This document shows, in pieces, positions 7,623 through 44,597 of a stretch of 64,000 nucleotides of DNA. Where the stretch lies: the sequence record OQ870566.1; one strand, written 5' to 3'. The position numbers and the translations under genes are program-made. The notes under the pieces are model-generated. The model made no database searches. It was not told where the DNA came from and worked only from the letters and a program-made list of their open reading frames with translations. Each line of letters starts with the position of its first letter. The stretch's first letter is position 1. The DNA is from Escherichia phage SR02.

Positions 7623-7821
7623 TCACTAGTGCCAGATTTGACAAACTAAATTCCTTTATAAACCAACCACTTAGTAAATTTATTGAAAAAGATGGTAGTA
7701 TTCTGGGACTATGGGTAATGCTCTGTATATAGACCCTTTGAAAATTTCTTAGAAAATAAGTTTACTAAATATAACTTACTTAAATAATATTACTTTTAAT
7801 CTCTGATAAAGGGTAAATAAT

Positions 7822-8118
7822 ATGACTTTAGAGGTATATAAATTCCTTTTTGTACTCTGTTTAACTGTCAGCGTTCTAGGATTTATTGTTCTAAGAAACA
7901 AAGCAGCAAGCTGGGAGAGAATGTATAAATCTCTAGTCCGAGTGGATGAGATGTATAATGAGAAAGTTAAAGCAACTCTTAACGATCTTATTATGCAAGT
8001 TGAAGACAGAAACAAACGTCTTCAGAATCTCAACCACGAAGTGTTACGCCTTGCTCGTGCTAACGAAGACTTGCGAGTGGCGATTGCTAAGCAGCAGGAG
8101 ATTAACAGTGAAAGTTAA
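7822..8118 (+). CDS. membrane-anchored coiled-coil protein
   Basis: N-terminal TM (FLFVLCLTVSVLGFIVL) then heptad-like region. Confidence 0.5.
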   Translation: MTLEVYKFLFVLCLTVSVLGFIVLRNKAASWERMYKSLVRVDEMYNEKVKATLNDLIMQVEDRNKRLQNLNHEVLRLARANEDLRVAIAKQQEINSES

Positions 8119-10048: not shown

Positions 10049-10124
10049 GCGCTCTTAGCTCAATGGATAGAGCAGTAGCCTTCTAAGCTATTGGTTACAG
10101 GTTCGAGTCCTGTAGGGCGCACCA
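10049..10124 (+). tRNA. tRNA-Arg(TCT): tRNA-Arg (anticodon TCT)
   Basis: Hand-folded cloverleaf: acceptor GCGCTCT/AGGGCGC, D-arm GCTC/GAGC, anticodon loop CTTCTAA, T-arm ACAGG-TTCGAGT-CCTGT, encoded CCA. Confidence 0.85.
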
Positions 10125-29956: not shown

Positions 29957-29980
29957 TTGGTAGTAGATATGATAACTCTC

Positions 29981-29989
29981 AAATGTATA
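29981..29989 (+). promoter_or_regulatory. AAATGTATA motif (variant of TAATGTATA) upstream of 30029
   Basis: Motif ~40 nt upstream of start. Confidence 0.35.
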
Positions 29990-41268: not shown

Positions 41269-41398
41269 AGAACCTGTAGTTTATAAAGACTCTATCAGAG
41301 ATCAATATAATGAGATGTTAAAGAAACAAGCTGATTCTAATCTTCGTTATCAGAGGATAGTAGAACAATCTAACTTTAAGGGTTTACTTGAATGGTAA
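41234..41398 (+). CDS. hypothetical small protein overlapping the phosphoesterase 3' end
   Basis: AGGAAGG RBS; low support. Confidence 0.3.
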   Translation: MKEEKNKISLFKEPVVYKDSIRDQYNEMLKKQADSNLRYQRIVEQSNFKGLLEW

Positions 41399-41676
41399 CT
41401 TATATTCTTTACTTTTTGGCTTTCTTAGGAATAATCTTTTTATCTATTATTCTTGAATTTGGTTTAAGTAAGTTAGTTAATTATTTAGGTAGTAAGTAAT
41501 TAATATTCTTTTAAATAGAGAATCAAAGTCCCTAGGAGTCCCTACAACCTAAATCAAGGATTCCTTAATTCTCTATTTTTATCTCGCAGGTGGCTCCTGC
41601 CCTTCGGTACTTGCAAGGGATTCTGTGAATTGCCCAATGTACAAGCCTGCAAGAGTTATTCTCTAACTCTACCTTA

Positions 41677-41685
41677 TATACATTA
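41677..41685 (-). promoter_or_regulatory. TAATGTATA motif on minus strand, divergent from the 41737 copy
   Basis: Reverse complement TATACATTA on plus strand; no minus-strand ORF downstream. Confidence 0.3.
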
Positions 41686-41736
41686 CCATTAGTGAGTATC
41701 TACTACCAATAAAATGATACTTATCTTACAAAAGTT

Positions 41737-41745
41737 ATAATGTAT
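41737..41745 (+). promoter_or_regulatory. TAATGTATA motif, candidate promoter element for the phage sigma factor
   Basis: Recurs upstream of genes on both strands (29981, 34312, 41737, 51921 minus). Confidence 0.45.
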
Positions 41746-41805
41746 ATTATACATAACCGCTCAAAGAGAGCAACAATCTATCAAATTAAATAAGGAAATT
41801 AAAAT

Positions 41806-42552
41806 ATGTCTATGATTCCAACTATCGCAACTTCTTCCCGTAAATCCAACTACGACATTATCCCTGATGGTGAGTACGAAGCACGTATTGTTCGTGTAGT
41901 AGGTTTAGGTGTTCACAATCGTGACCCTTGGGTTGACCCGAAGACCAAAGCAGTAACTCCTAAGAATCCAGCTTTCCGTATGGATTTGGCTTTCGAGCTG
42001 ATTGGTGTTGATGCTACTGGTAAAGATTCCGATGGTAAGGCATTAGAACCGCGTCCAGCTTGCCAGTTCAAGAGCTATGATGTAAACCCACGAGCTAAGA
42101 ACTCTGGTATTCTTGATCTTTGCAAGATGATTGACCCAAGTATTCAAGCACTGAAAGGTGATCTGTCTTGGTTCAAGGATGTTCTGTTAGGCCAGCCTGT
42201 TAACATTCTGGTTAACTCTTACACTAACAAAGCTGGTGAAGTTAAAAACTCCATCAAGACCATTTCTCCAATCCCAACCAAATATCGTGCAGCAGTTGGT
42301 GAAGCTCGTAGTCCTCTGGTATTCTTCGAACCGTATGCTGAAACCGATGAGAACGTAGCATCCTATCAACTGATGTTCCCGTTCCAGCGCAACCTGCTTA
42401 CCCAAGCTAATGACGCTAAGAACATGCCTCTGGCTGGTCGTGAAATTACTCGTGCTTCTGAAACAGAACAGAAAGAAGCTACTCCTTCAATCCCTACGAT
42501 TGATAGAGAGCCTACTTCTACTTACGAAGACGACAACGATAGCCCATTCTAA
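41806..42552 (+). CDS. ssDNA-binding protein candidate (gp2.5-like)
   Basis: Acidic C-terminal tail ending YEDDNDSPF; position in replication module. Confidence 0.45.
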   Translation: MSMIPTIATSSRKSNYDIIPDGEYEARIVRVVGLGVHNRDPWVDPKTKAVTPKNPAFRMDLAFELIGVDATGKDSDGKALEPRPACQFKSYDVNPRAKNSGILDLCKMIDPSIQALKGDLSWFKDVLLGQPVNILVNSYTNKAGEVKNSIKTISPIPTKYRAAVGEARSPLVFFEPYAETDENVASYQLMFPFQRNLLTQANDAKNMPLAGREITRASETEQKEATPSIPTIDREPTSTYEDDNDSPF

Positions 42553-42573: not shown

Positions 42574-42597
42574 AGCCACCTTCGGGTGGCTTTTTTC
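42574..42597 (+). terminator. rho-independent terminator
   Basis: AGCCACC-TTCG-GGTGGCT + TTTTTT. Confidence 0.65.

Positions 42598-43105: not shown

Positions 43106-44597
<1,492 letters not shown>

Follow-up and report, generated by a model that had tools for sequence, protein, structure and literature searches.

The DNA analyzed here, a 64,000-nt stretch of Escherichia phage SR02 (OQ870566.1) referred to below as the window, comes from a Kuravirus (phiEco32-like) coliphage. The interval under study and its flanks are 87–99% identical to approximately 100 Kuravirus/Suseptimavirus coliphages (phiEco32-like, Gordonclarkvirinae), including NJ01, phiEco32, and SU10; by BLAST, approximately 98 phage records match the region. 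The interval is a spacer between the homologues of genes 41 and 40, and the region contains the following features:

41392–41499, plus strand: gene 41, homologue of phi32_41 and SU7_35, a 35-aa hydrophobic ORF (phrog_24970; E value, 4e-23)
41510–41606: invariant block (mean pairwise identity 97.7%, minimum 94.7%)
41677–41685, minus strand: gp36-type promoter element TAATGTATA, extended as TAATGTATATA, with a predicted start at approximately 41669–41671
41698–41707, minus strand: upstream box GGTAGTAGAT, 12 nt before the minus-strand element (block identity 96.7%)
41738–41746, plus strand: P40, a known gp36-dependent middle promoter with the element TAATGTATA, serving gene 40
41759–41771, plus strand: conserved hairpin GCTC-AAAGA-GAGC in the gene 40 5′-UTR, the UTR being 90% identical
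41792–41796, plus strand: gene 40 ribosome-binding site AAGGA
41806–42552, plus strand: gene 40 homologue, predicted to encode an OB-fold SSB-like protein with the acidic C-terminal tail that marks an SSB
42574–42591 (to 42600 with the T-run), plus strand: terminator AGCCACC-TTCG-GGTGGCT followed by T6, directly after gene 40
43565–44212: gp36 sigma factor homologue (phrog_1740, RNA polymerase sigma factor; E value, 6e-46; weak Sigma70_r2 match)

The initial annotation had described 41399–41805 as an AT-rich interval without an ORF. The composition agreed with this description (30.2% GC compared with 41.8% window-wide), and the 306 bp at 41500–41805 are indeed non-coding, but 41392–41499 is occupied by the 35-aa gene 41, the ATG of which overlaps the stop codon of the preceding gene, so that the two are translationally coupled. 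No 100 bp of the window are more AT-rich than 41430–41529 (18% GC), which tie with an intergenic segment at 7730–7820 (18% GC) in front of an ORF at 7822; this segment is probably an early promoter region.

Conservation of the spacer

The spacer was aligned in 25 sequences, comprising 19 phage genomes and 6 metagenomic contigs; pattern scans of IMG/VR and metagenomes for further relatives returned close relatives only. Conservation was strongly uneven. Mean pairwise identity was 73% at the 3′ end of the upstream gene, 84% in gene 41, and 42% and 65% in the two variable spacers that flank the upstream box, whereas the element within the spacer was nearly invariant in the approximately 25 aligned relatives. 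The invariant block comprises an inverted repeat with its loop, a T5 run, the hairpin GCAGG-N5-CCTGC, and CCCTTC. To its right follow a cassette, a short hairpin of variable sequence, the invariant TATATACATTA containing the minus-strand promoter element, and a variable spacer; beyond these lie the invariant ATCTACTACCA, the second variable spacer, P40, and the conserved 5′-UTR. Gene 41 is not part of this conserved unit. It is missing from phages of the ECBP2/Paul/TH43 type, and at least eight aligned phages (ECBP2, TH43, Bas88, Paul, Bas86, EK010, NC-B, and XT32) lack it and keep the promoter, the short hairpin described below as H1, and the block.

The element matched nothing in E. coli genomes, and a search for exact copies in 185,579 species genomes was likewise negative. 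At gathering thresholds, Rfam returned nothing in the spacer, and a permissive search gave only chance-level matches (E values, 3 and 7). The sole Rfam or ARAGORN match in the window was a tRNA-Arg (anticodon TCT) at 10049–10124 on the plus strand. A blastn-short search for a second copy of the element or for long complementarity within the window found nothing above chance.

Some relatives depart from this layout. For phage 101114UKE3 (L022, 350–511), the GenBank record has a plus-strand CDS of 53 aa within the spacer. The window and most relatives lack this ORF, and the CDS is probably an over-call. Three distant metagenomic relatives (L007–L009), whose gp40 is 66–69% identical, do not carry the element. 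They have another near-invariant structured segment before the gp40 homologue, at approximately 1360–1440 (GCATATAGCTTAGCTTAGCTTTGATATGC TAGCTTTGCTAG), which may be a positional analogue of the spacer element.

P40 and a predicted divergent gp36-type promoter

The gp36 promoter element has been reported as tAATGTAtA, with transcription starting 6–8 nt downstream (PMC8948821, PMC4331800). Six such promoters have been published, located before phiEco32 genes 6, 13, 26, 40, 58, and 68, and they have been described as single-element promoters, recognized by the E. coli RNA polymerase when it contains the phage sigma factor gp36. The motif TAATGTATA is this published element. It occurs in five exact copies in the window compared with 0.8 expected, and five copies were reached in none of 100 shuffled sequences.

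Two of these copies had been proposed to face away from each other at the right edge of the interval. An exact copy is present on the minus strand at 41677 as proposed. The plus-strand copy directed toward the SSB-like gene is also present, except that it starts at 41738 and not at 41737; it was identified as P40 because the ORF at 41806–42552 is the phi32_40 homologue. P40 forms a near-palindrome with the minus-strand sequence TTATGTATA at 41748–41756. Across this region (41738–41756, TAATGTATA t TATACATAA), the arms TGTATA...TATACA are kept in the relatives around a center of T, C, or TAG, and in the window a perfect sigma70 −10 hexamer, TATAAT (41736–41741), overlaps the palindrome. The leftward promoter and P40 stand back to back, 52 bp apart.

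The minus-strand 9-mer was exact in 24 of the 25 relatives, the remaining one carrying the variant TAATATATA, in spite of an identity of only 42% in the adjacent spacer, and the extended form TAATGTATATA was also retained. Both strands of the 64-kb window were searched for the exact 10-mer GGTAGTAGAT, and only two copies were found, each exactly 12 nt before a gp36 element. One belongs to the leftward promoter, and the other to the following feature:

29959–29989, plus strand: P68 homologue, with the box GGTAGTAGAT at 29959–29968 and the element AAATGTATA at 29981

In a scan of the collection, phiEco32, NJ01, ECBP2, and KBNP1711 each carried two copies of the composite of box, N12, and element, one per strand. 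The second composite of phiEco32 was recognized as P68 because it lies directly upstream of phi32_68. In the ES17 group, the box has a one-base variant and the spacing is unchanged. The accessory box at equal distance, together with the invariance of the motif amid variable flanks, indicates that the minus-strand motif is more than a chance 9-mer, and the assignment of this motif as a gp36-type promoter of the P68 class is well supported by these sequence comparisons. The proposal of divergent promoters thus stands on a published gp36 element, the known P40, and a conserved minus-strand copy that shares its box and spacing with P68. A sigma-70 reading of the box was also considered and discarded, since TTGGTA-N18-TAATGT is only a weak look-alike that the scan did not call.

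The leftward promoter resembles P68 and P40 of phiEco32 in its 9-nt element and in the gp36 sigma factor encoded nearby. With P68 it further shares the GGTAGTAGAT box, at 12 nt upstream of the element, as well as a hairpin that starts at the predicted start site. It differs from both in pointing against the middle genes and in having no ORF downstream. It is not among the six promoters given in the literature consulted and apparently has not been listed so far. The P68 transcript begins with the hairpin UACAA-UAAGAAU-UUGUA, which is extended in ECBP2 and KBNP1711, and the P68 box GGTAGTAGAT is not explained by the single-element description of gp36 promoters.

In the ES17 group (L019, 453–596; L003 and L028–L032), an insertion of approximately 150 bp separates the divergent promoters. 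It encodes a basic ORF of 47 aa (ES17_37), in which the differences between contigs look mostly synonymous, and CTACTACC repeats border it on both sides, the promoter box being one of them.

Gene 40 as a one-gene transcription unit

Gene 40 has its own promoter and, directly behind it, a canonical terminator, which makes it a one-gene transcription unit. This terminator overlaps the start of an Rz-like spanin ORF. By analogy with T4 gene 32, the hairpin in the gene 40 5′-UTR may be an autoregulatory site. At the same position, the distant metagenomic relatives L007–L009 (approximately 1455–1475) have a different hairpin with compensatory changes (TGTCCA/TGGACA versus AGTTCA/TGAACT).

Reading gp40 as a replication initiator was rejected. 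The match to the NCBIfam NGO0469 family spanned most of the family model but was below threshold (E value, 1.3e-5; 24.9 bits versus a cutoff of 75), the name of that family rests on weak BLAST hits reported in a 2007 paper, and the predicted fold is of the OB-fold SSB type. The designation “phage replication initiation protein, NGO0469 family” may therefore be a misnomer. A single-sequence structure model of gp40 reached a pLDDT of 36 and was unusable.

Structure of the predicted leftward transcript

The initial annotation had pointed to a long imperfect inverted repeat and further GC hairpins in the spacer, and all of these were recovered. The arms of the inverted repeat are AAATAGAGAAT (41513–41523) and ATTCTCTATTT (41568–41578), for which a repeat search gave 14-nt arms with 93% complementarity; the other hairpins are GCAGG-TGGCT-CCTGC (41586–41600) and CTTGCAAG (41611–41618) with CCTGCAAG (41646–41653). 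Read from the leftward promoter, a transcript would pass through these features in the following order:

41653–41670, minus strand: H1, a 5′-terminal 6-bp hairpin AGAGUU-loop-AACUCU that begins at the predicted start
41606–41650, minus strand: middle domain in the form of cassette A, a GCUUGUA/UGCAAGU helix plus GGG/CCC with a variable loop
41586–41600, minus strand: H3, a small hairpin GCAGG/CCTGC with a 5-nt loop, invariant except for one loop position (G/T)
41513–41578, minus strand: H4, a long 3′ hairpin with a 16-bp outer stem (41513–41528 with 41563–41578, including G·U) followed by inner stems

H1 varies in sequence and keeps its pairing. All 12 haplotypes were 100% paired, compared with 22–58% in slid controls, and two of the five pairs showed compensatory changes (U-A to G-C, and C-G to U-A to A-U). 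The covariation score was 0.44 versus 0.19 in shuffled alignments, and none of 500 shuffles reached it. At one pair, half of the haplotypes (6 of 12) carry a change from GC to GU, which on the plus strand reads as an A·C mismatch. Since the P68 transcript likewise has a hairpin at its start, H1 may belong to the promoter class and not to a dedicated RNA gene.

The middle domain is exchangeable. The window and phiEco32 carry cassette A; a non-homologous cassette B, approximately 26 nt longer, replaces it in ECBP2, MN05, the ES17 group, and several metagenomic contigs. Phages with cassette B retain the RNA architecture unchanged and add one compensatory pair (U-A to C-G). Covariation was confined to H1 and this one pair; H2–H4 are invariant and hence neutral toward the fold.

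RNAalifold analysis of the cassette-A sequences yielded four helices, H1, H2, H3, and the long H4. The consensus fold was better on the minus strand (−39.4 kcal/mol, 43 pairs) than on the plus strand (−29.4 kcal/mol, 33 pairs), where H1 was lost. G·U pairs, available only on the minus strand, also lengthen the outer stem of H4 from 11 bp to 16 bp, whereas on the plus strand H4 is an 11-bp inverted repeat followed by T5 (41576–41580). Single-sequence folding gave z scores of −2.97 for the minus and −3.36 for the plus strand and so did not separate the strands. Of the two alternatives first raised for this interval, a replication origin or a non-coding RNA, the latter finds comparative support in the covarying 5′ hairpin, the minus-only wobble pairs, and the better minus-strand consensus fold. 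Within H4 lies a direct repeat of AGTCCCTA (41527–41534 and 41537–41544) at a spacing of 10 bp.

The proposed RNA contains no ATG. A hidden minus-strand gene was considered and rejected, as the sole ORF on this strand, which has 32 aa and a TTG start, is not conserved and contains a stop codon in phiEco32. On the minus strand H4 is followed by UUUAAAAG, which has no U-tract, and the terminator scan made no call there. Possible trans targets were screened by duplex folding, a crude measure, against 205 translation-initiation regions, and the best duplex (−47 kcal/mol) was no better than those of shuffled RNA (mean best, −45.6 kcal/mol).

Interpretation of the junction and alternative explanations

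Sequence and comparison establish the promoter signature and its conservation, the covariation of H1, the constancy of the 3′ block, and the lack of a conserved ORF. From these patterns we infer the synthesis of a leftward RNA, its 3′ end, and its function. The 306-bp spacer would be a compact transcription junction of three units that also encodes a small RNA gene. The leftward gp36-type promoter with its GGTAGTAGAT-N12 box would fire away from gene 40 and produce a non-coding RNA of approximately 160 nt, extending from about 41670 to about 41510. Such an RNA would open with H1, which probably shields its 5′ end, continue with the exchangeable cassette A or B, and end in a near-invariant 3′ domain made of the GCAGG/CCUGC hairpin and the long rod-like inverted-repeat hairpin. 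On the plus strand, the inverted repeat and T5 probably terminate or process the rightward middle operon, after which P40 would restart transcription for the one-gene unit of gene 40. As to function, our best guess is a stable regulatory RNA that appears along with the middle genes and, in the manner of lambda oop, is antisense to any transcript reading through from the upstream operon. It would thereby uncouple gene 40 from that operon, while a protein partner would hold the 3′ scaffold constant. The antisense or insulating effect would come free, because the RNA is complementary to operon read-through. Antisense action alone does not explain the near-invariance of both stems and loops, which points to a partner in trans, whether a protein bound to the RNA or proteins bound to the DNA; this near-invariance fits a DNA-level site equally well. 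The leftward transcript could instead continue as a long antisense RNA. On the comparative data, we put the chance that a gp36-driven, structured non-coding RNA of about 160 nt is the selected product of the leftward promoter at about even.

Lambda oop is a 77-nt antisense RNA transcribed from pO beside the replication genes, overlapping the 3′ end of cII and ending at a canonical terminator, and it was once suspected of priming replication. The proposed spacer RNA would be similar in being short, having its own promoter, running opposite to the major operon beside replication-related genes, and being antisense to read-through from a convergent operon. It would differ in being about twice as long, in lying clear of coding sequence, provided that it stops at the hairpin, and in having no U-tract; it would also need a phage sigma factor for its transcription, and it is similar neither in sequence nor by Rfam. 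In type, the proposed RNA would resemble known small antisense and non-coding RNAs of phages, and its promoter is of a known class.

One alternative, which we regard as unlikely, is that only the plus strand matters: the inverted repeat and T5 would form a terminator or a T7-like RNase III processing or stabilizing hairpin, the RNA would be functionless, and the leftward promoter would be auxiliary, for example by aiding P40 through the supercoiling of divergent transcription or by blocking read-through through collision. The T5 run lies directly after the stem and is kept in 24 of the 25 sequences, the plus strand folds well by its z score, P40 restarts transcription 160 nt downstream in front of a gene with its own strong terminator, and the two promoters lie back to back. 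T7 RNase III sites and bidirectional terminators offer a likeness, being long intergenic hairpins with internal loops between convergent units, and an A-run and a T-run flank the spacer stem. On the other hand, the stem is AT-rich and encloses a structured loop of 43 nt, the terminator scan made no call, and the inverted repeat is not among the four terminators given for SU10. Neither invariant loops nor an additional invariant GCAGG hairpin past the T-run is needed by a terminator or required of an RNase III site. Also against this reading stand the A·C mismatch of H1 on the plus strand in half of the haplotypes and the 150-bp insertion that the ES17 group tolerates between the promoters. A regulatory role in cis appears hardly credible, namely that the leftward RNA silences gene 41 as an antisense regulator or as the antitoxin of a type I toxin-antitoxin-like pair. 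The leftward RNA would be followed directly by a gene for a hydrophobic peptide of 35 aa, an arrangement typical of type I pairs, but 14 nt lie between the end of the hairpin and the stop codon of gene 41, so that an RNA ending there would not overlap the gene, and the phages listed above that have lost gene 41 keep the promoter, H1, and the block. A type I system with gene 41 was rejected on the ground that many relatives lack this gene.

The remaining alternative is the transcription-activated origin raised at the outset, in which the block would be a DNA site for replication proteins and the leftward promoter would open AT-rich DNA or prime replication. The primary origin of T7 and oriF/oriG of T4 combine a promoter with a downstream AT-rich unwinding element. 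The spacer shares with them a phage-specific promoter aimed at very AT-rich DNA, here the stretch 41430–41529 noted above as jointly the richest in AT, near replication genes: it adjoins the gene for the OB-fold SSB-like protein, and the DNA polymerase is 3 kb off. The 97-bp block, with its twofold AGTCCCTA and the palindrome GCAGG-N5-CCTGC, has invariant loops of a kind natural for DNA-binding sites. Unlike in the T7 and T4 origins, approximately 160 nt of structured, GC-richer sequence separate the promoter from the AT-rich stretch, and this stretch consists mostly of gene 41 coding sequence that is deleted in phages retaining the promoter and block; a conserved unwinding element was not found directly past the promoter. 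The cumulative GC skew makes no turn here and only tracks gene orientation, in the distant relatives GAP52 and Privateer the gp40 homologue is preceded by little or no spacer, and the wobble pairs and covariation of H1 indicate selection at the RNA level. In the literature that could be searched, nothing relevant on Kuravirus origins, RNA-seq, or non-coding RNA was found. Nothing computed here favors the origin reading; an origin role is much less supported than an RNA of approximately 160 bases, and we consider it distinctly unlikely. A bolder pair of proposals strikes us as similarly improbable: the block could be the long-sought origin of the Kuravirus phages with C3 morphotype, with a P68-class promoter firing it, or the RNA could be a protein-binding scaffold in the switch of the host RNA polymerase from sigma70 to gp36, with the exchangeable cassette as its specificity module. 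Either case would reveal a new type of element tied to a phage sigma factor that recognizes a single promoter element.

Implications for phiEco32-like phages

Phage phiEco32 is a model for the reprogramming of host RNA polymerase by the sigma factor gp36 and the RNA polymerase-binding protein gp79, and its relatives are widely isolated therapeutic coliphages. Being near-invariant in the relatives and absent from the bacterial genomes searched, the spacer element is a practical landmark for these phages. If the leftward promoter is genuine, it would be a seventh conserved gp36 promoter and would share its box with P68, so that gp36 promoters would not all be single-element; the shared box would then offer a handle on the separation and timing of promoter classes and add a new detail to gp36-dependent transcription. 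If the RNA is made as proposed, it would give the phiEco32-like group its first described non-coding RNA gene, a highly constrained one, and would be a candidate regulator at the junction of the replication/nucleotide-metabolism operon and the SSB-like gene.
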